From Bispira polyomma (lineage: Eukaryota): a stretch of 64,000 nucleotides of DNA. This document shows positions 2,187-64,000 of the stretch, one piece after another. The position numbers and the translations under genes were made by a program. Where the stretch lies: NCBI GenBank assembly GCA_965649765.1, contig OZ287761.1, forward strand, positions 7,688,001-7,752,000. Reading direction: 5' to 3'. Each line of letters starts with the position of its first letter. Within the stretch, counting starts at the first letter, position 1. Below the pieces are notes generated by a model that was not told where the DNA came from, did not search any database, and saw only the letters and a program-made list of their open reading frames with translations.

Positions 2187-3558
2187 AGATATTTTTAGGA
2201 TGTGCCAATTAAACTTGTGACTAGTGTCTGTAAATATAAAACCTCGACGTGAATTGGTACAGCTTTTGGATTTTCTTATGATATGTAAAACATAGGCAAA
2301 GTAGAAAAAAAACTGAAATTGAATAAATGATTATTTGTAAAAAAGAGGTTAAATGATATTTAGTATATTTTACGCCTTGGCTAGACTAAAGACAACCCAA
2401 CACATGCATATAGTTACTTGTATCCACATAAATACTTTCAATGGTGAATTTTAAGTGTACTTTGTATCCTTCCAAAAACAGACACAAAGACATACCACAT
2501 ACATGAATAAGTTTGAACAGTTTATAAGTAAACACTGCCTCTATGACGTCATTGAAAAACGTCGACCTCCAAAGAATTGTTTGAATTGTGAGATTATGTA
2601 TGTATATACATAAATAACCAGTGAGGTTTGAAATTTAAAAGTATCACCAGATGTGCGTATATTTAGGGGGAACATTAAGTATGTTTGTATTATATTTATA
2701 TATATGGCAGATATAAAGGTTACATAGGATATTTGACTACATACATTATGTACACTGGTAAGTTCCCATTCCCATTCTAATTTCACTTACTGATATATAT
2801 ATGCATTCTGTCATTAAACTATACTGATGCTAGATGTATTGTAACCAGTATGTTATATACTGTATATTAAAATAATTCTTCCTCCACTTTTTCTCACTAA
2901 CTTGTGCTGCTGCATGGGAGGATCAAAGTATGTGATCAATTCATTTATATATATCTTCTGAGTTATAATATATACACAACATTCTTCTTATTATTCCTTT
3001 ATATGTTAGTTGTTTACAATATATTGTGAGGAATTAGTAAACTTAATGGGGTGACCCATTTATAAAATGATAATGTGTAGGGTACTGGAAACCAGAATTA
3101 TGACTATTAACAGGATGTAAATCAGTCTAATTCATAACTCAGAGATGCTATCTACATTTGTGACCAAATCTAAGCAACTGCATATTGACATATTATAGTC
3201 TCAAGCATGGGAGATCTGTTACACTAAGACCTTGTTTAACACATATATGCACTCATATATGACCTTGACACAAGAGGAAGTTTCAAATCCTTGTAAAAAT
3301 GATAATATATGCACATGAACTATATCAAATGTAGTTATAATACCAGACTATTCCTTGGTACACTAGTCGTTTGGGTTCAAATGTCTCACCAATCTGTAAA
3401 AAGGCAAGTCATCATTTCTAAAACAAAGAGTTCAAATTCTAAGTTGCTGCAATTACTTGATATCTGTTGATCAAGGTGACTGCTCGAAAAAGCTGTCAAA
3501 TAGGATGTTTTGCAAAAAACTGTTTTACTTCACACACTGCAGGTAATCCATTTTCACA

Positions 3559-5014
3559 ATGGCTGACAAATTTGCTTCTCTGGGATACAGACAAGGTACC
3601 AATGGGCAGTTGACCAACCTGGCTTACCAGGATGATAACATAATAGTGAAATCTCAGCAGAGAGCTGATCAGAACACTGGTAAAGAACCAGTCCAAACAA
3701 GCACCAACAGTCTCCATGAGAGGAGAACAGCGTCTGACCTTTTTAACGGAACAGTGACTAAGGTGAATGATAAAATGATATCTAACAACACCCAGTCAAA
3801 TTTAGATGTTGAGAGGGTAAGTGAGGAAATGGCTGATCATGTTAACAACAAAAACCCAAATACTGGCGGAAACACCAGAAACCCATGTAATGACATTAAG
3901 GAAGACACAGGTAAACCTTTGGGAAGTAGAGTATTGCCTGGTCAGGTGTTGGAAGATACGAGTACACAGCCTGACAAAAGAAAGCTGTCAAGTAATAGTT
4001 CTCAAGGGATTAACAGAGGACATATGTCTAAAAATAGTATGACTGACAATGACAGTAACTCAGTACATAGTCCCGGATGTAGGAGTGAGAACAGCATCCA
4101 GTCCCCATACACAGAGAGTGTGTGCCTGAAGATGTTTGATGACTGCTTTGATTCTTCATCCAACTTTACCTCCAGGAGTTCAGGCAGTGAACTTGAATCT
4201 TCTGCGCTGAGCTGTGTGAATCTAGAAGACATCACTGAAGAGGATGGCTACCTCCCTGATACAGAATCAGTGCTAGCTGATGATGTATTCAATACTGCTA
4301 CAGAGGGGGAATGTGACAAGGATAAATTTGTAAACAGTAATAGTTGCCATAATAAAGAGCATGACTTACCACATCATGGTGTTTCTTATTCTAGTAAAGA
4401 AAAGCATAGTGTTAGTGGAAGTAATAGCAAGTCTGCTTCACCAGTCAAAAATAGTGAGAAATTTACAAAGATACCGGTGACAGAGACTGTTATTGAAGCA
4501 CCTGTATATAAAGATGACAAGGGTGAAAAGAAACAGTTATTGCTTAAAACTGATGGTAAAAATGATGATAAAGCTTTGCCCCCAGTGTCGACTAAAGGTG
4601 AAAAATCTGATAAGGCTAATAAAGAAGAAACCAATAATCTTATACCTGACCAAGATGATGGACATGATATAGTTTGTGTAAAGCAAGGTTCAGGTACAAC
4701 AGAATCCACTGATAAGCAAGATAGCAGTAGTCAAAAAGACAGGGGTAAATCCAGCTTCCACATTACCCAACCAAGGGAATACAACATGCGTCACGATACT
4801 CGGCGTACTTTGGTAATGCAGTCATCTGATGTGATCCATTGTCAGTTCCTTGAGGATGACTATGATGTCTATAAGGGGAGGAGAGCCAGGCTGTCAGTGT
4901 ACAGCAGAGACCAACCCTTTATGCCACCAAGAAGTAAGGATTATCTCCTGTTGTCGTGTATGGTGCTGTGCTGCTGTAATCCCCTCGTTGGCATCATTGC
5001 CTTCAGTTTTTCTG
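3559..5014 (+). CDS. CD225/dispanin-family (IFITM/PRRT-like) membrane protein, coding exon 1
   Basis: Long ORF with S/D/N/K-rich N-terminus ending in PPRSKDYLLLSCMVLCCCNPLVGIIAFSFS (first hydrophobic segment of CD225 with Cys cluster); donor G|GTAAGT at 5014/5015, phase 1. Confidence 0.9.
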
Positions 5015-5706
5015 GTAAGTCTTGCTGTTAGAGAAAAATAAGATACTGTTCTACCCTTAATTTGTAATTGTGCTAATTGTAAGTCAGTTATTGTATTGTA
5101 AAATTGTATTTTCTACATTCAATTGCATACGAATCATTTATTTCACGTTCGAAAATTAATAAAAATTCAAGTACATCGATACATTCATTCAACCAAAGGT
5201 GCTATCTGGACCATAAATTTAACTCACTGTTTAAAGCGATTTCACCATATCAGATGGACTATTGTCTCTCCAGTCTGACCATATTTTAGAAGTCATGCAA
5301 TATATTACACAAAATTGCAATTTGCATGAACAATAACCATGGCTGTAGGTGTCCAGCATAAGGTCAACTTGACCAAATTAGGTTGCTTTTTGAAGTTTAA
5401 CTAGTTGTTGTGAACTAATCAACCAGAAGTGACTTCCAATAGCCTTTGAAATGATTTGGTCCCAGTCTTTGGCTCCCAGGTCAGGTATAGGCAGATACAT
5501 GGTGGCTCTGTTGATTATTAAAACTGGTGGTCCTCTGTCATTGGGTCCTATTCCTAGTGTGAGGCTAAAGAACATTGAGGATGTTGATAAATTGTCATCC
5601 TCAACACTCTGCCTTCAACTGTCCTTTGAATACCAGGCAAAGGTAGATACAAATTCTACATTCTTTGTAGCCACCATAATTATGACTGATACTTTTGCAT
5701 TTACAG

Positions 5707-9165: not shown

Positions 9166-9222
9166 CCTCCCTCATTTATTGCAAGTAAAGTACAAATAAA
9201 TCCATAATAGATGTAAAGAAAA

Positions 9223-11247
9223 GCTGTCACATAAAGTACAGCCTATTTTAGTCACATCTAAACTGTCACATGTAGTCCAGCATATCTTAGTCACAACTAA
9301 ACTGTCACGTGCAGTAAATCATATCTTAGTTACATCTAAACTGACACATGTAGTACAGCATATCTTAGTCACATCTAAACTGACACATGTAGTCCAGCAT
9401 ATCTTAGTCACATCTAGATGTAAAGAAAAGCTGTCACATAAAGTACAGCCTATTTTAGTCACATCTAAACTGTCACATGTAGTCCAGCATATCTTAGTCA
9501 CAACTAAACTGTCACGTGCAGTAAATCATATCTTAGTTACATCTAAACTGACACATGTAGTACAGCATATCTTAGTCACATCTAAACTGACACATGTAGT
9601 CCAGCATATCTTAGTCACATCTAAACTGTCACGTGTAGTCCAGCATATCTTAGTCACATCTAAACTGTCACGTGTAGTACAGCATATCTTAGTCACATCT
9701 AAACTGTCACATGTAGTACAGCATATCTTAGTCACATCTAAACTGTCACATTTAGTACAGCCTATCTTAGTCACATCTAAACCGTCACATTTAGTACAGC
9801 CTATCTTAGTCACATCTAAACTGTCACATGTAGTACAGCCTATCTTAGTCACATCTAAACTGTCACATGTAGTACAGCCTATCTTAGTCACATCTAAACT
9901 GTCACATGTAGTACAGCCTATCTTAGTCACATCTAAACTGTCACGTGTAGTACAGCATATCTTAGTCACATCTAAACTGTCACATGTAGTACAGCATATC
10001 TTAGTCACATCTAAACTGTCACATTTAGTACAGCCTATCTTAGTCACATCTAAACTGTCACATTTAGTACAGCCTATCTTAGTCACATCTAAACTGTCAC
10101 ATGTAGTACAGCCTATCTTAGTCACATCTAAACTGACACGTGTAGTACAGCATATCTTAGTCACATCTAAACTGTCACATGTAGTACAGCATATCTTAGT
10201 CACATCTAAACTGTCACGTGTAGTACAGCATATCTTAGTCACATCTAAACTGTCACATGTAGTACAGCATATCTTAGTCACATCTAAACTGTCACATGTA
10301 GTACAGCATATCTTAGTCACATCTAAACTGTCACATTTAGTACAGCCTATCTTAGTCACATCTAAACTGTCACGTGTAGTACAGCATATCTTAGTCACAT
10401 CTAAACTGTCACATGTAGTACAGCATATCTTAGTCACATCTAAACTGACACGTGTAGTACAGCATATCTTAGTCACATCTAAACTGTCACATTTAGTACA
10501 GCCTATCATAGTCACATCTAAACTGTCACATGTAGTACAGCATATCTTAGTCACATCTAAACTGTCACGTGTAGTACAGCATATCTTAGTTACATCTAAA
10601 CTGTCACATTTAGTACAGCATATCTTAGTCACATCTAAACTGTCACGTGTAGTACAGCATATCTTAGTCACATCTAAACTGACACGTGTAGTACAGCATA
10701 TCTTAGTCACATCTAAACTGGCACATGTGATACATCCTATCTTAGTCACATCTAAACTGACACGTGTAGTACAGCATATCTTAGTCACATCTAAACTGTC
10801 ACGTGTAGTACAGCATATCTTAGTCACATCTAAACTGTCACGTGTAGTACAGCATATCTTAGTCACATCTAAACTGTCACACGTAGTACAGCATATCTTA
10901 GTCACATCTAAACTGTCACATTTAGTACAGCCTATCTTAGTCACATCTAAACTGTCACATGTAGTACAGCATATCTTAGTCACATCTAAACTGGCACATG
11001 TGATACATCCTATCTTAGTCACATCTAAACTGTGTCGTGTAGTACAGCATATCTTAGTCACATTTAAACTGGCACATGTAGTACAGCATATCTTAGTCAC
11101 ATCTAAACTGTCACATGTAGTACAGCATATCTTAGTCACATCTAAACTGGCACATGTGATACATCCTATCTTAGTCACATCTAAACTGTGTCGTGTAGTA
11201 CAGCATATCTTAGTCACATTTAAACTGGCACGTGTAGTACAGCATAT
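9223..11247. repeat. 39-bp minisatellite, ~50 copies (CATATCTTAGTCACATCTAAACTGTCACRTGTAGTACAG)
   Basis: Directly visible; gives a 13-aa period in the ORF track; includes a 207-bp duplication of the left edge (9208 and 9415) and a 117-bp three-unit higher-order repeat near the right end. Confidence 0.98.
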
Positions 11248-11632
11248 TTTCAGAAAAAAATTATTACTACTTCCGATTTTAGAATTTGTATTGAAACCCA
11301 ACAATGCATCAACTTACTTTTATTATGAAAGAGATGTATTTTATTTTAAATATTTTGTACTTTAGACGGCTCACTTTGCATGCCATAATTGGATAAACAT
11401 ACCAATGAGGACAACACATTATAGATATTGATAAAGTAGGTGATAATACACTAGAACTGAACAAGCAGATTATTCTGAAGGTATAAGTGCTAGACACAGC
11501 CCAGTTGCTGCTAGAAACCTAATGGCATGTGTTGATACAAACAAAGATACAGTGGATAACATGAGCTAAAACTGAAGTACTTTGAAAACAAGATCAGACT
11601 ACCTGTCTGTATGCTGTTTTCTGTTCTATATC

Positions 11633-20200: not shown

Positions 20201-22478
20201 TGGACCACTCGATTTAAAAAAAAAACCTACATGGTATCATTAATAGTGTCGGAACCCTACGTACCACATTAATTTCAATGGTGATTTCAGACTGAAACTG
20301 AATTTTCCAGCCAGACTTTAGTTATATGATATTATTTTGTAGCGAGTTTAACTAATAGTGCCTTTCATTCAGGTGGAATTTTGTATTGCTTACATCTTCA
20401 CTGTTATCAATCACATCATAAGAGTTACTATCTTAAAGTAACATCTACTCCCTCACCAAAAAAAATTACGATGTATACTTCATTTTTTAAGAGTAGACCC
20501 AGGATTTGTTTCACTGTGTTGTTCTTCTGTATCATAATTATAAATGTGGTGAGTATTGCCTTTCATTGCTTAAAACCATGTCACTAAATCAGGACAGTCT
20601 GAGTAAAATTTAAATTACATGCTTACAATCGTTTTAATAACGAAAGGAAAAAACTGTGAAAGATTGTTTTATATACGTATGCTAAATGGACTGTTGTTTT
20701 TCTCAGAAATTGTTTGCACAAAGATTGAGCAATTATATTTCGTGGATAAAGCTAGACAGTTTGAGATATAGGAGTTAGAGATAAATAAATGTATTTGGTT
20801 AAACCTAAACTCTAGTACTACTAGTAACTAGGGCTACTTAGTTCAGTCTTTGACTTAGTGAAAAGACAGGTAAACTTACTTAGTTCAGTGGTTAATTCCA
20901 CAAACCATTGATGGATAACATTGTAATCTTCATTGCCTTTACATGGCTATAGGTTCTCTAGTAAAAATTGCCTACAGTCACTCAATGACCCTTGTCAGTG
21001 TCAACAAAATAAGGCTGGTTAACAGTGCTGCTAATGAATATGGTCTGTATTTAAGCAACCAATTTGTGAAAATGTCTCTTTTTGAAGCCCTTTGATCACC
21101 GTTAGGCACTGAGTGACTTCAATTTTGCAATTACTTTTTGTGAAATTCTACAGGAACTACACTTAACATATATATTACTATGTAACTATGTTGCATTCAG
21201 TAGAAGTTATTACTGAAATATCAACAAAATATAATAAAAAAAAGCAACTTTATTTTGGGCGCATGATACTTAAAACCTCAAATTCAGAAGGCAAGGGGTT
21301 ATGTGGATACTTTGTCAGAAAGCAGTGATCTAATTGATACAATCCTTAATACACAAGATGGACTTAAAAAGCAGGTATCAACAGACATATTGTATAAGTA
21401 TATTGCTTGCACAATCAAAAGGAGACAGAGTCGTGGATGGTGTGTTTGTCAGTCAACAAGCAGCATTAACTGTAACAATTTAAAACTGTATCTCAATTTC
21501 TACCAAGAACTCTCAGAGGCAAAATATAGCCAAGTATCAAGTACCTCTGAGATTGTCTGGGCTTCCCATTTACCACATGTCTTTAACTTAAAGTCATGCT
21601 TAAAACTGTAATACCCACATAGATATAGATTACCCTTTAATTATTGTTGGAAAGAACCTAGACATGTTGTCACCATGATGCCTGTTACTAGGAACTCTGG
21701 CAGGCAGATTTCTTTAGAGATATATCTTTCGTGTACACAAAGATGCACAGCAGATAATATTTTGAGTTTATAGTGAGTTTAAATTTGAAGAGCTTTGATA
21801 AGTACTGGCCCTGTTCAGTGATATAAATGTCTTGAGATTTACAAGATACAAATACCATTTACAGTGAGTTAGAACTTTACATCTATATATTTTTCAACCT
21901 GCATTTCCAAACACAAAACTTCCAATGCAATTCTATTGTGAATTATTTCAAAAAAAATATGTACACATCATATAGGTACCATATATTATTTTTGTCAAGT
22001 AAGTAGATTTAAATCAAATTTAAATATTTACTAATTGCTACACTAAGTCACAAAAAAGTGTAAGTTTTAATTTTAATTCTCATTGGAAACTAATTTTCAC
22101 TTTTTGAGTTCATCAGTTAAAAAATTTATTCCTAGTTAAAATGTCCACTTATGCAGTGTGACTAGCAAGCACACTTTAGGTGGCTGATGTGTCAGTTACC
22201 AAACACATTTTTAAAATCTATTCTTGTTATTCACTCTGTCCAGCATGAACTGAGACTGACCAATCAGCATTTAACACACCTCCTTCAATTGGCTTGTGTG
22301 TCCCCCCACATACAATCTGCCATTTTAACTCCAGCAAGACAAGGGTAAACACGTGAATGCAAAAGTGTTGAGAAAAAAAAAGCTTCTTTTATGATTTTAT
22401 GAACTTTACGTGTTTTATATTGTTTTTAGTATATGTTTGTTTTTAACATTGTACGCGCTTGTTGATTATATTACCATT

Positions 22479-23561
22479 ATGGGACGTGCTAAGAAGACGC
22501 CAGAGAGTGCTCCACAGAAGAACAAGACTATGGCAATCAACGAGAGGTGTAGTATCTGCCCGTCCGGATCCGATAGTACAAAACCTTCAAATACCCCTAT
22601 CCGAGCCTGAAGTTAATATCAGTAACAATCCGGACAGTCAAATGCTTGCCATTCTTCAGCGGCTAGAGACGGAAAATGGAGAAATAAACAGGCGCCTAGA
22701 CCGAGTAGAAGCCAGAGGGACCCATAACTCAACACCGAGTATTCCCCACAATGACTCACTAGCTGATCTGAGGCGTCAGAATGTTCACATCCAGATGACA
22801 CACGGTCCCACGAACCCGATGGTTCAACCAGCCATAAACCAAAGGTCAACCATACCTGGTCAAGACTACCAACGGAATGGTACCATTCCAAGGGTGGACG
22901 TTTTACGTAACATTCTTGGAAGTTACTGCTGCTGTTAACGCAAGACTAGCAGCTTATGACACTCGATATTCACAGGACCTTGCTCAAGTTAAGACAACTA
23001 CTAGGCAGAAGTCGGGTAGATACAATTCCACAGATGTTTGTTTAGCAGAGCCCCAGTTTCGATGGCCCAACGAGGGCTGGGTCGGGGGCACAGCCCGCAA
23101 GAAAACGCAATTTGACGAACTGTCCCTATCACAGTGGGCAGCGGGCCAGTTGGCCAACGCGGTCCAGACAACGGACATCACAGTAATGAAATCCATGTTA
23201 AACCAAATGATCTATGCTTTGAGGGATGCACACGCTCTGCCCTGGCCAGCGGTTCGAGCTGCGTGGGGCCATAATATGCAAGAGATAGAGGAAGGAAGAC
23301 TCGACTGGTCCAATGCCACACAATGGGCCCTGAATCGCCTTAGCTTATCTCAACTGGCCCTGGTAAACGGTCATTCCTCGTTATCGAACCAACAGAAGGC
23401 CAAGGTTATCTGCAAATATTTCAACAGCGGGTGACGACGGTGATCATGGCCAGTATAAGCATCACTGCTCATATTGTTTTAAAGTGTTAAACAAGGAAAA
23501 CAGTCACCCTGAGTTTAAATGTCTGAAAGCCAATTCTTCAAACACCAAGTCTGGCAGCTAG
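22479..23561 (+). pseudogene. gag-like ORF1 of element 1, frameshifted
   Basis: MGRAKK start; coiled-coil ILQRLE..NRRLDRVE; KSGRYN..RWPNE..FDELS..AAGQL; C-terminal Cys/His finger CKYFNSG..HGQYKHHCSYC..HPEFKC split over several frames. Confidence 0.8.
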
Positions 23562-23930
23562 GTTGGAGGTCGACGTTCCTGTACAGCTGTTAACAATGCT
23601 AGGTGTGTAATAGAGTTAATAGAGACGTAAATGTTAAAGTATATAAGAATAGTAAAATTAGAAATAGCATAGTTAATGCAGTTCATTCAGACAATAATAA
23701 AGAGACGAACAATAGTCAAGAAAATACTGAATTTAATTTAATGTGATTAATAATATCAAGTCACCTGTCAGGAGATACTACATGATGACATTATTGCAGA
23801 GCAGGGCAAAAGGGAAAATCATAACGTATACAAAAATGGGGGTCATTATGATTCTTATCAGTCAAATTTGTATTACACTAACTTCAACAATGCACCTATG
23901 TATGTTGGTGAATAGAATCTAGCCTGCAAA

Positions 23931-26181
23931 ATGTCAATCATGAATTTTTCATATGTGAACAGCTGGGGTCACAACCTACCAGTTGTTCACTTACATGTGC
24001 CAGATTACACAGGAATTTCAGGTTTTTACTGTGAAAGTCATAGCGTGTTCTCTAACAACTTTACCTATACTCCACTGGGGGAAATACCCAGCTTTTCCAT
24101 GGGGGTTTGTTACTCTTTTGATACTAGAATTAATGTCGACTATAACTCGGTAAGAATTAAAACCCTTAACGAGAATCAAGTCATGTATGCAAAATTGTCC
24201 CACAACAATCACAGTAGGGACCTGGAATGCCAAAATTTATTTGGCCATGATTATACTACATACTTGCAGCATGTTATTGACTGTATTATTGAACACGATG
24301 ATTTCAATACTGAGAAATCAAAAATACCTGGGAAGACAAGCAAATACCAAAACATGAGTATGGTCGAACCTGCACCTGTCAAATTGAGCGAGGCTGTGTT
24401 CCAACAAGTCTCTGAATCTTCTCGAAAAAATATTTCCATTAAGGATATTTGTGATCCCAATAAAACAGTAGGCTTCATAAAACTCTCAAATAAGGAATTC
24501 CAATTCACTGGACCTGACAGGGATTCGGTTACAGTTGATTCCATGGACACAATGTGCAGCATTGCTGACATTGTAAGGTCAACAGGGATGCCCAATTACA
24601 AGCAAGCTAGAATTGCCATTACTTGTGGTTTAAATATAGAAGCATGGGAAGACATTACACGTGGCCATCATGACCAGCTTCTGTGTCAGTATCTCAAGTT
24701 TGGATTTCCACTTTCTTTGTACAATCCTCAGTCACTTAACCAAACCACAGAAACTAACCATCATTCTGCATTACAATTCACAGACGCAGTAAACAAGTAC
24801 ATACACAAGGAACAAAGCAAAGGTGCTATGTTAGGCCCCGTTTCCAACATTCCAAATGTACATTACCATTGCTCACCTCTCCTTACAAGGCCTAAGGACA
24901 TCAGTGACAGACGTGTAATATTAAATTTATCACACCCAAAGGGGTTTCAGTTAATGACCATGTCTTTTGATGATATAAAATTTATGTTAAAATTTCCCAA
25001 CATAGATGACGTCACTGACGCAATAAATAACATTAAGGACCCATTACTATTCAAGGTTGACATCGCCAGGGCCTTTAGAAACCTGCGCATCGACCCAGTA
25101 GATGCAGTCAAATTTGGCATAAAATGGGATGATAAATGTTACATGGATCCGGCGGTGGCGTTTGGATGGGCCCACGGAAGTGGGGCCTTCCAGCGCTGTT
25201 CTGACATAATAGCCGACCATATGAAGAAATTAGGTTATATCTTACACTGCTACATAGATGACTATTTATGCGCATGCCCAAGGGCCAAAGCCAATGAAGG
25301 TTTTTGCTAAATTGTGTGATCTCTTAAATGACCTAGGTCTTCCTATGAACCCAGGTAAACTTTCTCCCCCCTCTACTGAGGTAACTTACTTGGGCATTGA
25401 TATAAACATCACAACCAACACAATAAGTATTACCAAAGAAAAAATACAACAGATATATACAGACTGCATTGAAGCCCGTAGTAAGGCCTGGCTTTCACGT
25501 ACACGACTTCAATCAGTATTAGGCAAGCTTCTCTACATACATAAGTGTGTCAAACCAGCCAGGTGCTTTGTAAACAGACTCCTAGCAGTATTTAGGGCTT
25601 CTCCCAATGCCAAACGTTTTAAGGTTACTAATAACATAAAGAAAGACCTTGATTGGTTCATTCAATTTCTACCCAATTACAATGGTGTCACATATTATAA
25701 TCCACAAAATATAAAAGCAGTTAATGAGTTCCATTTAGACGCCTGTCTTACGGGGATGGGGGCTATATGGGGATAAGAAGTTTATTTTACTCCAGTTTTG
25801 GATATTTATGGTCAAAAATTAGCCATCACCCAATTAGAAATGCTCAATCTAGTTATCGCTTTAAGAATGTGGGGCAAGGACTGGCAACACCAATGCGTTA
25901 TCATTAACTGTGATAACATGGCAGTTTTACAGGTCGTCGAGACCAATAAGACCAATGATTCTTTCCTTGCTGCCTGTATTAGAAGTATCTGGCTGCTTAG
26001 CGCCATACACGACATAACTATACAAATTAAACACATAAGGGTTAAGGCTAATATATATGCTGACGCATTATCGCATATATATTCTGAACATCCAACTAGT
26101 AAAGAAACACTACACTTTCTTAGTAGGTGCACACGTAAGGTCGTGCCCATTCAATACTACAACCTAGATTCTCATATATAA
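23931..26181 (+). pseudogene. Reverse transcriptase / RNase H of element 1
   Basis: SPLLTRPK..RRVILNLS, FKVDIARAFRNL, FGWAHGSGAFQR, YIDD; RNase H DACLTGMG, LEMLN, CDNMAV, NIYADALS; frameshift ~25305 and in-frame TAA at 25774-25776. Confidence 0.93.
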
Positions 26182-26187
26182 TTACAG

Positions 26188-27158
26188 GTTCCACAGCAGC
26201 ATCTTCTTCTCTGGGGAACGCTGCTATCCAAAGAATACAGTCAGCACTCCATCAACCACTTCAGCATACACATCACAGTTCAAGACTTTCCTAGCTTTTC
26301 TGCATTATGTACAGATACAAGAAATCTCCATTCACTCCATCTTGGTGTTCATGGAATATTTAGTACGGAACAATCTCACCAAGAGTGGTAAAGAATTATT
26401 TAGCAGCATTGAAGTTCATGACACAAAAGTACAACATCCTTCCTGATATATTTCATCATAATGCTATCTCTCTATTTATCAGGAGTCTTACACACAATTC
26501 CCAATTTAGGCCAACACCCAAGGGTGTGTTCACAATTAAACACATCTCTCTCATATCACAAGCATGTGAAATACTAGAAGACCCTATTCTATACAGATCC
26601 ATCTTTTTAATTGCTTTTTACGGGTTTCTAAGGATGTCCAATATTGCACCTCACTCTGGGGCCAAGTTCGATCCAACACGTCATTTATTACGACAAGACG
26701 TAACCTTTGGCCCCCCTGGTGCTCACGTGATTGTCAAGTGGGCTAAAAATATGCAAAATAGGTCCTCATCACATGTGATTCAACTCCCTACAATTTCTGT
26801 TCCACATATGTGCCCAGTGCTGGCCCTCACAACACTTATCAAATCTAGACACACTTCTCCTTCTGCTCCTCTATTTGTTGTGTCCACTGTGCCACACCAA
26901 CCTATAATTGATTCACACATCCAATCTGCCCTCAGACAAATATTACAACACCTTGGAATTGACCCATCATTCCATGGTTTCCATACCTTTCGCAGATCGG
27001 GTGCTACAGCAGCTTTCAACAATAATATATCACTCCAGAACATCATGGCACATGGCCTCTGGCGTAGTTCAGCCGTATGGATATACCTCCAATCCACTTC
27101 ACAAGCAGCTGCTGTAGTCCCCTCTACTTTCTCCACTATCATACCCTCCTCCCTCTAG
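26188..27158 (+). pseudogene. Tyrosine recombinase of element 1
   Basis: Catalytic set intact in 26385-27158: GFLRMSN (R), HTFRR (HxxR), HGLW, WIYL (Y). N-terminal part (PSTTSAYTSQFKTFLAF..FMEYL) lies upstream with two frameshifts and no ATG at its start. Confidence 0.93.
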
Positions 27159-30100
27159 TTGGGATTTGGGCTTATTTTTAAAATTTTATTTCACAATATT
27201 TTAATATATTCTAACCTTCTCTGTACATATCCATTAACATGTACAGAAAAATAAAACCGCAAACAGCATCTTTTATTTTCACATTCTTTACTCCCACTTC
27301 CAATGGTTAACTCTACTTTTTCCATTATCACTCAGAATAGGGAACTGTTTTAATGTCCATTAATACTTTAAATATACACACCACACACTAAAGGACAGGG
27401 ATTGTCACTATCTTGCAGGAATATACACTAAAACAAGTGTCATTGACAAACCTGGTGCCTTTTGCTTTGTTATGTATTTTAAAGAAAAAGTTGCATCAGG
27501 CAAAATCTGACAGGAAAGAGCAAATAAGGAAAATCACACACTGCCATGGAACAGCCATGGAGAAAGGTACACAATAGTCCATTACCAATTTACAAATGCG
27601 ATGTTAGCCAAAGTCCTACAATTTGTCAGACATAGGTACAAGTAACCAGACAGGTAGGTCAAATTTGATCTTATAAAATACTTTTTGACAGAAAGTTTAA
27701 AGTTTTAGCAGGTTAAGCCTGTTGAATTGTATTTTACCAACAAAAAGCAGTAATCTAATGTGTGCATGTCAATCTCTGGATGGACATGTCGGACTCAACT
27801 ACAATGATAATATGTTTACAGTAATGTCATGCATGCAACACACTGTTCATCTTAGAGTATGCAACTTGAGCTAAATTAGTAAATGATGCACATGGTATTG
27901 CAGTCCTCTTTCAGCACTATTGTACATGTTTAAATCACTACTCCAAAATATGTATCGAGTTGAAGGTGAAATACTGTGTTAACAATGTCAGTTGAAAGTC
28001 ATGATAAAGTCAGATTGAATAAGGACTGATGCTGTTTTGGCAAATTTATTTACACAAGTTCAGTTTTAATTTACATCTATACATAAATTATATGAGCAGG
28101 TACAGTCTGATAATGTTTTTATTCGAATGGAGAAGGGTGCCGCCATGTTAAAAACAATAAGTAAGGCCTTCATGGTTTGGTTGGAATCAATCGACCTATC
28201 GTAACTGAGAGGTGTTAGATTAGTATTTGTTGGGGTGCCAAGCTGGCCCGAGTTTACAGTGGCCATATCAACGTTAGTGTATTTCACACTGGGTGCCTAT
28301 GTCTTTTGTTTACTTTGATCAATGCCAACAAGCGGCTACACAAATTAAGGATTCTTGGTGTCTTAATATGTAGTGGTAACACACAAGAAAACTTATTGGT
28401 CATCACAAGTCTTCAACTGAGCGTCTAGTTTCCATTGGAAGTGCATGTTATACTCCTTCAAAATATCTAAATTTAACACTAGAAGCTCTGTTAAAGTGGC
28501 TTCCACAAAACTCTGAACCAAATAAAGTTTACACTGGAAGCTCTGTACCAACAGAAAACATAAAAGAATCAATTCTACCTATTGTTCCTACATCCTGTCC
28601 AATTTTGTCATTCAGAAGCTGTAATATGGTGTCTGTTGCTTTCCTTTAAAATAAAACTAATGTCTTGCTGCTTTTTTTTTTTTTTTGGTCTACTAGACAA
28701 ACCAAAATAAAACACATGACAAATTACTTCCAATCAGTCCAAATAAAAGCACTTTGTGATCTGCATAAAAAGCAGATTTAAAATGGAGAAGTGTTTTTTA
28801 TAAGTTGTAAAGCTGACTAGGTGTTTAAGTAATAGCTAGCCTTCACAATATAATCGTCTAAATGTTTGTCAGCTTATACCAATATAAAAGTGACCTAACC
28901 TTGTCTTTAGCATTTGATCATATATATCACTGAACAGTTTGTATGAAAACCAATGGTATAGTTTTCATTTATAACAACACTAGAGCACCAAGTTATCGTA
29001 CAATTGTTGTTAAATGAACATTGAGGGGTTTAATGCTCAGTGATATATTATGACATTAGGATGCTTTTGAATAAAGTGCTTCTTCTTTTTAAATTCTACT
29101 TTGGGGTACAATACATTTAAAAATTGTGATTTACCACAGCTAAAGCATTGTGAAGCTACTTGTTTTATTAGTTTAAAATCTATGATAAGCTACAGTACAC
29201 CATTTTTAAAAACTAAAATTAGCTCTACATTGGCTTCCCTGTCATATACAATACAAAAGATGGGTGTTCTGTGAGAAATGAATGGAACATACCAGGATAT
29301 TGCTGGATTTTATATTCATTATGTAATTACATAGAGCCAGATAGACTTTACATTTTGTGGGTATATGTGTTTGTTGTCCCTAAAAAATTTTTTTTTTTTT
29401 TACATTTTAAGTTTGAGATAGAAAATAAAAATTACATGTTCCATGACCTTTCTCTATATTTACACTATGAGAGTTGATAGACATCAAAAGACATTAAGTA
29501 ACGGGAGCCTATGATTAATGAACATAAATAGTACTTTATAACCAAAAAGAGCCAACATCTAACAAGAATGCTTTAAATGAAGTTGACTATCTGTTTGAAA
29601 TCAAAACATCACACATGGCTCTACTTAAATGGCAATGATATATTTACATGGAACTTATAGTACCAAAATACCATTTTTATTGGCTACTTTGATTAAAATG
29701 TAAAAAAAAAATTTGTTGTTTTCACTCTAAAAAGGGCGCAGCCATGCTGCAAAGTGCCGCCATGTTGGAAACAATATGTAATGTCTTTACCAATTGGTTA
29801 GAAGCAATCGACCTGGCCAAACTTAGGGGTTGTGAGCTTAATATTTCTCACACTGTGCGACTGTGTCTTTTAAAAAGAGACAACTCCTGTATTTTTTCTA
29901 GAAGAACAAAATGGAAATCACACAAAGACCAGACAGTTCTGATGAATTGTCCTCCATAAAGGAGTGACAATGTAACAACTGGTCTTTTGTGCCCAATCAG
30001 TCAGCATTACCATATGAAGAGGGACGATTAATGTAAAACCTGAGCAGCAACTTTGCTTCTGATGTTCAGTTTACTGAACCATATGATGAAGTCAGCAGAG

Positions 30101-60890: not shown

Positions 60891-61830
60891 CATTTCCTCT
60901 CAATGTCAAAACTATGACAAGTAATTCTTCTTTTGGGAATGAAAAGCTATAGAATCATTTTATGATGAAGCTGTCTTTTAATGCAGAAACAATACATTTA
61001 ATTTCCACCAGGAAAACATAGTCCCTCCTGCTTTAGTAGTATAACAAAGTAAATTTAGACTTTAAAGCTGACTATCATCTCAGTAAATATAAAAAACATA
61101 TATGGAGTACAAATGGCCTGTAGTCAAATGCGTTTTTTTTATCAAAATCTTTAAACAAAACCCCATAAAGATTATATTCTATATAAAAACTATAGTTGAT
61201 GAAGAAACAAGTTACTTAGAGACAGCATCAAGTGTTCTGTGGTTTTAATTGTGTTACCTTAAACCTAATAGAATTTTACTTTATATCATGAAGCTGTGGA
61301 AAAATAAACATGTTCTGTAATACTTAAAGAGCCAAGCCTAAGACATGTTTATAGATATTTCTACTGGAACCAGAGCAAAATTGTTTTTTTTAATCTTCAT
61401 CACTGCCACAAAGTAGCATGGCTAGTCAGCCGCGGAAATGCTATACTTTACTGTACTTCTGTTTTCAAAACTACTTGCTTATCACAGTCACTTCTCACCC
61501 CAATGCTGCATTCAGATAACACCTCCACTCTCCTCGGCGTTTCCCGCCTTTCTTATAATCTCACTGATAAGTCAGAAGACAAATCTCTCTTACTCTCCCC
61601 AGCACTTTCGCGCCCTTTGTATGATAAGCTCATTATTAAGTCAGAAATCAAACTAACAAACTATCAAAAATCTTAAGACATCAGCGGCCATATTGGAAAT
61701 TTTTATACATTATAACTAAAAATCCAATTGCCTGCTTAAGTGTCTATTATTTTACAAAATTACAACAAGTTTCACACGGAGGATAATATTGTGCATCTTT
61801 TAAGTTAATTTGTGTGGATATTACTTAAAA

Positions 61831-62912
61831 ATGGGGAGAGGAAAAAAGAAAAACTCTATTGAAACAGCCTCATGTACTAGATGTGAAATCTTCCACACAC
61901 GACCAGTAGGAAATCGTTGCAAACGAACCGCAGACACAAGAGATGATCTTCTCCAGCCTAGCTTTGATAGTGATGATCAAAGCAGTGTTTCTGAAGCAAG
62001 TGGCCAAGTTAGCAGTGAAAAATTCTATCGTGAGGCATACTCCACACAGCAGAATATGATGGAAACTCTGTTATCTACAGTCTCCAAGCGACTCATCCTC
62101 TCCCTACAGATTCTCCTTCACGTCACCTCACTAGTTCACAGAGCCGGTATGATCATGAAGCCACTCAACATGCTCTCAAAGATACCATTCTCCCGACTCC
62201 CGAAGTGCTGAAGCAGTCGTCCCTCATACAGAACGAGGTCTCCAAACGACTAGCGAGATATGAAGCCTGGGCCACAGATGAGAGCATTCAAGGTAAGTTC
62301 ACTACCAAGCGAAAATCTGGGCGCTACAATACCTCTGAATTATGTGTATCTGACCCCATGAAGCGGTGGCCGAACGAGGCCTGCTTATCTGGTGTTAACA
62401 AAAAGCGTGTATCTTTTGATGAATTGTCAGTCTCACAGTCCGCTGCTGGCCAGATCCAAAATATTCTTGAGGTTAAGAATCCTGATATTTCACGAGCCAT
62501 GCTATCCCAACTAGCAGACACCCTCAAAGATGCCTCCAACATCTCTTGGGAGATCACTCGTGGAGCATACGCCAGTAATATGCATGATATTGAAGAGGGC
62601 CGTTTGAGTTGGATCAATGACACAAAATGGAATATGAATCGGCTTTCTTATTCTCAAGCCCTCATATCCAGTACTACCGCACCATCGACCAGTTCGTTTT
62701 ATGCTTCATCTTCAAACAAAAATGAAATGCCTTGCAGGCGTTACCAAAAAAAGGACTGCCAACACCAAAAAGATCATGAGGGCAATAACATTACATTCCG
62801 TCATATCTGTGCCAACTGTTTCCGACTCAACAAGAGAATGAACCCACATCCCGAGTCGAAATGTTTCAAGTTACACGGACGCCCAAATGCGCCCGCGAAC
62901 GCCCCTCAATAG
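61831..62912 (+). pseudogene. gag-like ORF1 of element 2, frameshifted
   Basis: MGRGKKK..CTRCEIFHTRPVGNRC; KSGRYN..RWPNE..FDELS..AAGQI..IEEGRLSW; finger CRRYQKKDC..H..HICANC..HPESKC; two frames needed. Confidence 0.85.
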
Positions 62913-63630
62913 GGACGCGGACTGCCAGCAGACACCACAGCTACTCACCTTAAGTACACTTCTGATGTCGTTATTAACCATTGTGTACTGACAAGAAGTT
63001 GTGATTTAACCAGTAGTACTAATAAGCAAACTTGTAAGAAAAACAGTTTTAAGAATGATTTCATAAATAATTTTAGTTGTCAACTCAATGAGTCAATTAC
63101 TCAATTGAGTTATAGTGATGCCAGTAAGACATCTCAAGCATTACCTGGCACTGTTCCCTTAATGACTTATGTAGGCAAGAATTGCCTGTTAAATTGAATG
63201 TTATGAACTCTTTTCAGTGTGATAATAATGGTCAAAAACCATCAGCTGTCTTTCATACAGTAGACGTTTATATTAGCACCAGTAATTTTAAGTCTGATTG
63301 TCTAACTCATTGCTATATCGTTTGTTATGATGAGTCATGTATTTCAGGTGTATACAAATGGACTTATGGCCAAAATATCACATATGGCCTTTATCCTATG
63401 TGAACACCAGTTGTGCCACAACACTACGTCACACTCAACCAAATCAGCCAAAAAATCGTGCAAAACATAATGTGGCACATACACACACAAAAATTGGACA
63501 AACTTTCTATTATACAGATATCATTGACAAGATTTGCAAGTCAAATTTTCAACACCAGAGCAATTCAGATTGTAGCCATCAAGCCCACTTACCCCTTGAG
63601 TATCAAATTAATCAAGGTAATGCACTAGTA

Positions 63631-63875
63631 CATAATGACAAGGTTATGAGTCAAAAACCTATATTAGTGCATAATGAAACGTCTATGATTCAAAAACTTA
63701 CATTAGTGCATAATGAAACTTCTAGGATTTAAAAACCTATATTAGTTCACAATGATACTTCTGTGATTTAAAAATCTACATTAGTGCATAATGAAACTTC
63801 TATGATACAAAAACCTATATTAGTGCACAATGACGATTCTATTATTCAAAAACCTACATTTGTACATAATGAAGA
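63631..63875 (+). repeat. 39-bp tandem repeat (~6 copies) inside element 2's pre-RT region
   Basis: CATAATGAAACTTCTATGATTCAAAAACCTATATTAGTG; encodes HNETSMIQKPILV; two copies carry TAA where the others have CAA. Confidence 0.9.
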
Positions 63876-64000
63876 CGTCATGATTAATGACATTTTACCA
63901 CTTCAATCATCAGACACTAATGTGGACAATGTCGAACATGAATCCTTTCTTATTTCTAGGGACAGAGCTTATGGTTTCATACCACACAGAAAGTACAGTT

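Follow-up and report, generated by a model that had tools for sequence, protein, structure and literature searches.

A predicted spliced mRNA joins the N-terminal half of Gag to the tyrosine recombinase in Ngaro-type retrotransposons

The DNA analysed here, referred to below as the window, is a stretch of 64,000 nucleotides (nt) from the assembly of Bispira polyomma (GCA_965649765.1, contig OZ287761.1, positions 7,688,001 to 7,752,000), a genome of 1.04 Gb in 75 contigs (G000). It carries two decayed retrotransposons, elements 1 and 2 (Table 1), representing two families with an amino-acid identity of only about 38-47% in reverse transcriptase (RT) and tyrosine recombinase (YR). In both families, we find a phase-matched pair of candidate splice sites through which the recombinase would be expressed as a fusion to the N-terminal half of Gag. 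Ngaro-like elements are described, in the accessible parts of the published accounts, as containing gag-like, RT/RNase H, and YR open reading frames (ORFs) within repeats of the order A-ORFs-B-A-B (PMC3783388, bioRxiv 10.1101/2021.08.05.455354, PMC8547959). The window families share this ORF order and the split direct repeats. By structure, we therefore assign both elements to the Ngaro-type YR retrotransposons; the tree used below spans the loci of this analysis only, without named reference elements.

The integrating enzyme of these elements is a tyrosine recombinase with the catalytic R, K, HxxR, W/H, and Y residues rather than a DDE integrase. The YR of element 1 matches Pfam Phage_integrase (E 1.6e-7), a profile of the family YRs matches Cre (E about 7e-5), and R153, K190, H269, R272, W295, and Y303 are invariant or near-invariant in an alignment of YRs. 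Complete siblings of both window elements show the A1..B1 A2..B2 layout of split direct repeats, as seen in sibling L033 and again in L058, L053, L056, L062, and L065. The second A and B repeats are missing from the copy of element 1, one of several A..B units with exact ends (window 22157-27348, L055, L061, L064, L052, L070, and L196). The five regions checked had no inverted repeats at the ends of the elements, and a DIRS1-like assignment was rejected. Both window copies are dead, with frameshifts in gag and pol and, in element 1, also in the YR; because both are broken, neither could itself produce the fusion.

A first-pass annotation of the window had proposed that an intron of about 3.2 kb runs from a phase-1 donor inside gag to an acceptor directly upstream of the YR; the bases and coordinates it gave for the pol stop, the acceptor, and the two donor positions are correct. 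At the donor position of element 1, which reads CAAG|TTAAG, it had suspected a consensus site altered by one substitution, and a damaged donor it is: GTAAG stands here in 18/18 mappable siblings (20 examined), with CAAG on the exon side in 15, CAAA in two, and GAAG in one. Family 2 reads AAG|GTAAG in 21/21 copies, the window's own included, and has C rather than T at donor position +6 in most siblings. The equivalent acceptor expected upstream of the YR of element 2 is present 1706 nt beyond the window end (TAA TTTCAG|AC at L031:5206-5207), with the spacing and phase found in element 1. Conservation extends to the acceptors of sibling copies, the AG being retained in 38/38 mappable copies of family 2 (of 40) and, for family 1, in 24/30 loci in one tally and 32/38 in another. 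The six family-1 exceptions are near-identical copies, L020-L025 (contig C7, 24.3-25.0 Mb), in which CAT replaces CAG, probably reflecting segmental amplification of one dead copy. The sites thus have the form of a spliceosomal GT-AG intron, that is, an AG|GTR donor and a YAG acceptor preceded by a pyrimidine tract, in matching phases.

No ATG lies close to the beginning of the YR frame (GSTAASSSLGNAAIQ...). As had been anticipated, this frame lacks an initiation codon of its own: family-1 siblings have no in-frame Met before residue 57, and in four family-2 siblings the first one lies between residues 54 and 229. The predicted exon 1 contributes about 130-250 codons and always includes a conserved helix. 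The first-pass annotation had the intron drop the gag zinc finger together with all of RT/RNase H; this stands for the C-terminal zinc fingers and for RT/RNase H, and the helical core of Gag would be lost as well. It does not stand for an N-terminal CxxCxxxH-x7-C motif, which is kept in exon 1 in most clusters and is absent from family 1. A structural model of Gag (mean predicted local distance difference test score, pLDDT, 74.9) shows a helix at residues 27-49, the donor Gly 51 in a low-confidence linker, and a helical core thereafter; the donor falling in this linker, the splice would exchange the Gag core for the YR at a predicted domain boundary. Foldseek returned no solved fold matching the Gag model, and Pfam no Gag domain above threshold.

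Table 1. Features of the two Ngaro-type elements; positions refer to the window.
Feature	Position	Strand	Description	Basis
Element 1 (family 1)	22157..27348	+	A..B unit of a decayed Ngaro-type YR retrotransposon	blastn to siblings L033/L035/L036, 95% over 5.2 kb
Predicted exon-1 coding part, element 1	22479..22988	+	N-terminal half of Gag, with coiled coil and conserved helix; frameshifted here	Translation, family comparison
Phase-1 donor position, element 1	22985..22993	+	CAAG|TTAAG here, in a dead copy; siblings have GTAAG	
Predicted intron, element 1	22989..26187	+	3199 nt; contains Gag core, C-terminal zinc fingers, entire RT/RNase H	Exact loss in family-2 copy L196
gag TAG stop, element 1	23559..23561	+	pol in same frame beyond stop, readthrough-like in family 1	
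pol (RT and RNase H), element 1	23562..26181	+	Stop TAA 26179-26181; interrupted by stops/frameshifts	Pfam RVT_1 E 2.6e-6, RVT_3 E 2.4e-6
Phase-1 acceptor, element 1	26182..26189	+	TTACAG|GT, AG 26186-26187, directly after pol TAA 26179-26181	
Predicted exon 2, element 1	26188..27158	+	Tyrosine recombinase lacking a start codon of its own; frameshifted here near the 5' end	
Element 2 (family 2), 5' part	61394..64000	+	Runs beyond window end; acceptor at L031:5206-5207	
Predicted exon-1 coding part, element 2	61831..62292	+	Frame broken; about 130 nt shorter than siblings	
Phase-1 donor, element 2	62289..62298	+	CAAG|GTAAGT, GT 62293-62294	AAG|GTAAG in 21/21 copies

The breadth of this arrangement was assessed in 60 more elements of the same genome, picked via protein searches, and in 14 metagenome loci. 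At 70% identity, the elements whose YR start could be mapped make up 17 clusters, between which the median YR identity is 31%. Since the loop that holds the donor cannot be aligned, donors were counted in a Trp-anchored manner, between the Gag helix and a conserved W-P. The claim that divergent families share the donor position is borne out at this distance: a phase-1 AG|GTA follows the Gag helix in 45/46 frame-intact gags and in all 13 of 13 clusters, compared with one such motif in phase 0, none in phase 2, and 9/254 control gag windows. Each of the eight frame-broken gag rows set aside from this count has the motif too, and an A-GGT-A context surrounds only 9/417 other Gly codons. The residues around the donor Gly vary (S/Q/K/T/A/L/R before, T/N/K/S/R/I after) and the Gly itself floats in a loop of variable length; the constraint therefore acts on the nucleotides.

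At the other end, a phase-1 YAG behind a T-rich tract lies 17-22 codons upstream of the YR 'RP.T' motif in 63/73 elements under a strict filter, covering 16/17 clusters, and in 71/73 elements when counted by reading and without the tract filter. Other phases gave 0/73 (phase 0) and 1/73 (phase 2), and control YR windows 155/3186; the residue following the acceptor varies (G/D/E/A). Both sites are also present in the metagenome elements L132, L134, L135, and L136, of which L134-L136 have a single phase-1 AAG|GTACG in gag and are placed on a long, fully supported branch in our tree; L136 is similar to a cluster that includes a Porites protein. An indirect indication comes from database proteins, where a translated acceptor footprint is seen in 43/47 YRs that reach far enough upstream (267 examined; 610/2221 in control windows). 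No relative was detected among the viral contigs searched.

One intron-less genomic copy, L196 (also L146; G000:C1:95.31 Mb), was found among 20 family-2 YR hits without a listed gag partner. It shows an exact loss of the intron, the last base before the donor being joined to the first base after the acceptor (...CAAG|ACACT). Its frame runs open through the joint over 426 codons, and a single stop lies further upstream in gag. L196 spans the exact start of A to the exact end of B, sharing its ends with unspliced copies, and has no poly(A); both of its flanks are present in public runs. In the simplest reading, L196 would go back to a spliced RNA, with the machinery of the element itself responsible for reverse transcription and integration. 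The donor-acceptor joint was not among the joints listed on L033 in three runs that look genomic, with even depth over unique flanks, a result that carries no weight either way.

A second kind of joined sequence was seen on the metagenome contigs L140 and L141, where an ATG-started ORF is fused in frame to a YR of the L143 type exactly at the acceptor of L143. The upstream ORF encodes the N-terminus of a Gag, and 8/8 full-length Gag homologues have Gly at the position of the join. These contigs (L140:865-2457 and L141) carry an SGNH/GDSL hydrolase ORF, followed by the Gag N-terminus of one family and then by the YR of another, apparently representing a cross-family splice or its retrocopy. In element 1, no SGNH hydrolase ORF lies between the YR and the B repeat.

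From these DNA-level data we consider it very probable that the recombinase of these Ngaro-type elements is made from a spliced mRNA as a predicted Gag(N)-YR fusion. With both sites conserved and matched in phase, a YR that lacks a start codon, and one integrated copy short of exactly the intron, splicing is likely the normal route to the YR protein. The observation made in the first-pass annotation is confirmed, and its interpretation is supported. Several points weigh on the other side. The spliced mRNA and the fusion protein are themselves what we infer from DNA. Donors outside families 1 and 2 are often weak past position +3, three acceptors of the L091 cluster miss the strict tract filter, and an in-frame ATG often lies 5-8 codons upstream of the acceptor in clusters L100, L104, and L116. 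No contig bridging the L196 joint was among the pieces listed from public runs, and a second intron-less copy of family 2 was not found with this joint as query (40 scored of 297 candidates), nor was any seen in 60 loci of two other families or in 19 further loci chosen because their frames were long and open or because they lacked parts. The contigs L140 and L141 could be of RNA or DNA origin, and their halves stem from two different families. As for the protein, none of four long database hits was a Gag-YR fusion, and there was none among the 10 read for N-terminal extensions, of 150 listed hits, in a database of mostly prokaryote-style gene calls; searches for long YR proteins gave RT-YR read-throughs and no Gag fusions.

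The upstream ATGs of clusters L100, L104, and L116, like the lack of a fusion among the database hits examined, would suit a different role for the intron, namely, that the splice is real and serves as a regulatory or host-silencing decoy to remove pol, with an ATG of its own, a near-cognate codon, or an internal promoter giving rise to the working YR. We think this quite unlikely. The two sites are phase-matched in every cluster, a match for which a decoy would have no use; the upstream ATG is replaced by ATA in several close relatives; and initiation at the first Met of families 1 and 2 would lie beyond the region that aligns with the DNA-binding helices of Cre.

In print, the YR of Ngaro-like elements is depicted as overlapping or frameshifted, according to the accessible parts of the accounts cited above (PMC3783388, bioRxiv 10.1101/2021.08.05.455354, PMC8547959), and Poulter and Butler 2015, as quoted in PMC13003380, have it overlap RT/RNase H in the -1 frame, with expression probably by programmed frameshifting. 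The GT and AG sites would then be incidental. An RT-overlapping YR had also been named in the first-pass annotation as a finding that would speak against the intron, and a slight -1 overlap with the RT end does exist in families 1 and 2 (43 and 13 nt, respectively). It does not refute the splice, because the relation of the two frames differs between families and neither overlap contains a slippery heptamer. In the 60 usable rows (nine were dropped because the RT stop was >70 nt away, probably broken), the YR lies in frame -1 relative to RT in 31, +1 in 17, and 0 in 12, and all three relations occur within one cluster; the -1 rows comprise 24 with an overlap and seven without. A slippery heptamer was present in only 3/69 RT-YR overlaps. 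Between gag and pol, by contrast, where recoding would be anticipated, 46/49 copies of ten clusters retain AAAAAAY close to the stop of gag; pol then lies in the -1 frame, and an apparent hairpin often comes next. The remaining clusters keep an in-frame stop at the gag-pol junction. Recoding signals are therefore conserved at gag-pol only. A frameshift from RT/RNase H would also leave the donor and L196 unexplained, and we regard it as a highly improbable source of the YR. Readthrough-like in-frame TAG or TGA codons stand at the gag-pol junction of the window families (23559-23561, 62910-62912) and of metagenome elements, and in the L104 copy a single open frame of 1095 codons runs through gag and pol.

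We give next to no credence to the notion that the motifs are by-products of protein conservation in AT-rich DNA and that L196 is a chance deletion at the 2-nt microhomology AG common to the exon end and the acceptor: about a dozen other internal deletions do occur among the fetched copies, but their endpoints are scattered whereas L196 is exact at both sites and L140/L141 at the acceptor, and the motifs far exceed the control windows and stay constant in nucleotides where the encoded amino acids vary.

A spliced Gag(N)-YR message would fit into the expression of these elements as follows. The unspliced RNA would be the genome and also the template from which Gag and Gag-Pol are translated. 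Gag-Pol would probably arise through readthrough of the gag stop in families 1 and 2, and through -1 frameshifting in most others. Splicing would join the phase-1 donor after the Gag N-terminal helix to the phase-1 acceptor behind the RT/RNase H stop, yielding a predicted fusion of about 500-530 amino acids in families 1 and 2. The N-terminal helix and coiled coil of Gag may then bring the YR into Gag particles, in which it would travel with the complementary DNA (cDNA). Such recruitment is a more speculative part of the proposal, and we see it as evenly balanced between true and false. We lean slightly towards the broader view that the spliced fusion is a general and ancient route to the integrating enzyme of animal Ngaro elements, that the helix loads the YR into the particle, and that the splice can join neighbouring elements of different families.

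Among other features of the window, the region encoding the N-terminal part of the family-2 pol holds a tandem repeat of 39 nt, or 13 codons, at about 63590-63900. At 9200-11365 lies a long low-complexity tandem repeat, probably no gene, in which each strand has an open frame (721 and 595 amino acids). A low-complexity open frame of 494 codons at 3547-5031 is possibly a host exon; it ends in a weak match to CD225 (E 0.0018) that misses the cut-off.

Splicing of retroelement RNA is known as such; a spliced fusion of Gag and recombinase was not found in the literature searched, and it is at odds with the route proposed in print. In retroviruses and gypsy errantiviruses, the env mRNA is spliced from a donor near the 5' end, with pol removed. 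Our elements resemble them in that a 3' ORF would be reached by splicing pol out; unlike env, this ORF encodes a recombinase, and exon 1 would supply about 130-250 codons of Gag instead of a short leader. Ty1/copia elements offer another parallel, being retrotransposons in which a conserved subgenomic splice of their own RNA sets the ratio of their proteins, according to the accessible parts of PMC5580714. There, the spliced RNA gives Gag alone, whereas that of the window families would skip pol and join half of Gag to the integrating enzyme. The accessible portions of the Ngaro-like accounts describe neither an intron nor a Gag-YR fusion of the kind predicted for the window families. We found no report of an endogenous gag-YR splice in a full-text literature search, which took in the accessible parts of PMC7192593, PMC9341512, PMC2632668 (with supplements), PMC4157794, PMC6681497, PMC4495291, and PMC9940879; subscription reviews and Repbase Reports lay outside its reach and could mention one.

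Expression of the recombinase in YR retrotransposons has so far been explained by a proposed ribosomal frameshift (review quoted in PMC13003380, itself accessible in part). If the spliced Gag(N)-YR fusion is real, annotated YR ORFs would be wrong at their N-termini and the enzyme would be a fusion protein, changing what should be expressed for biochemistry. It would also suggest how the enzyme meets the cDNA, and the ratio of spliced to unspliced RNA would become a regulatory step for hosts and elements alike, one that can be measured in RNA.

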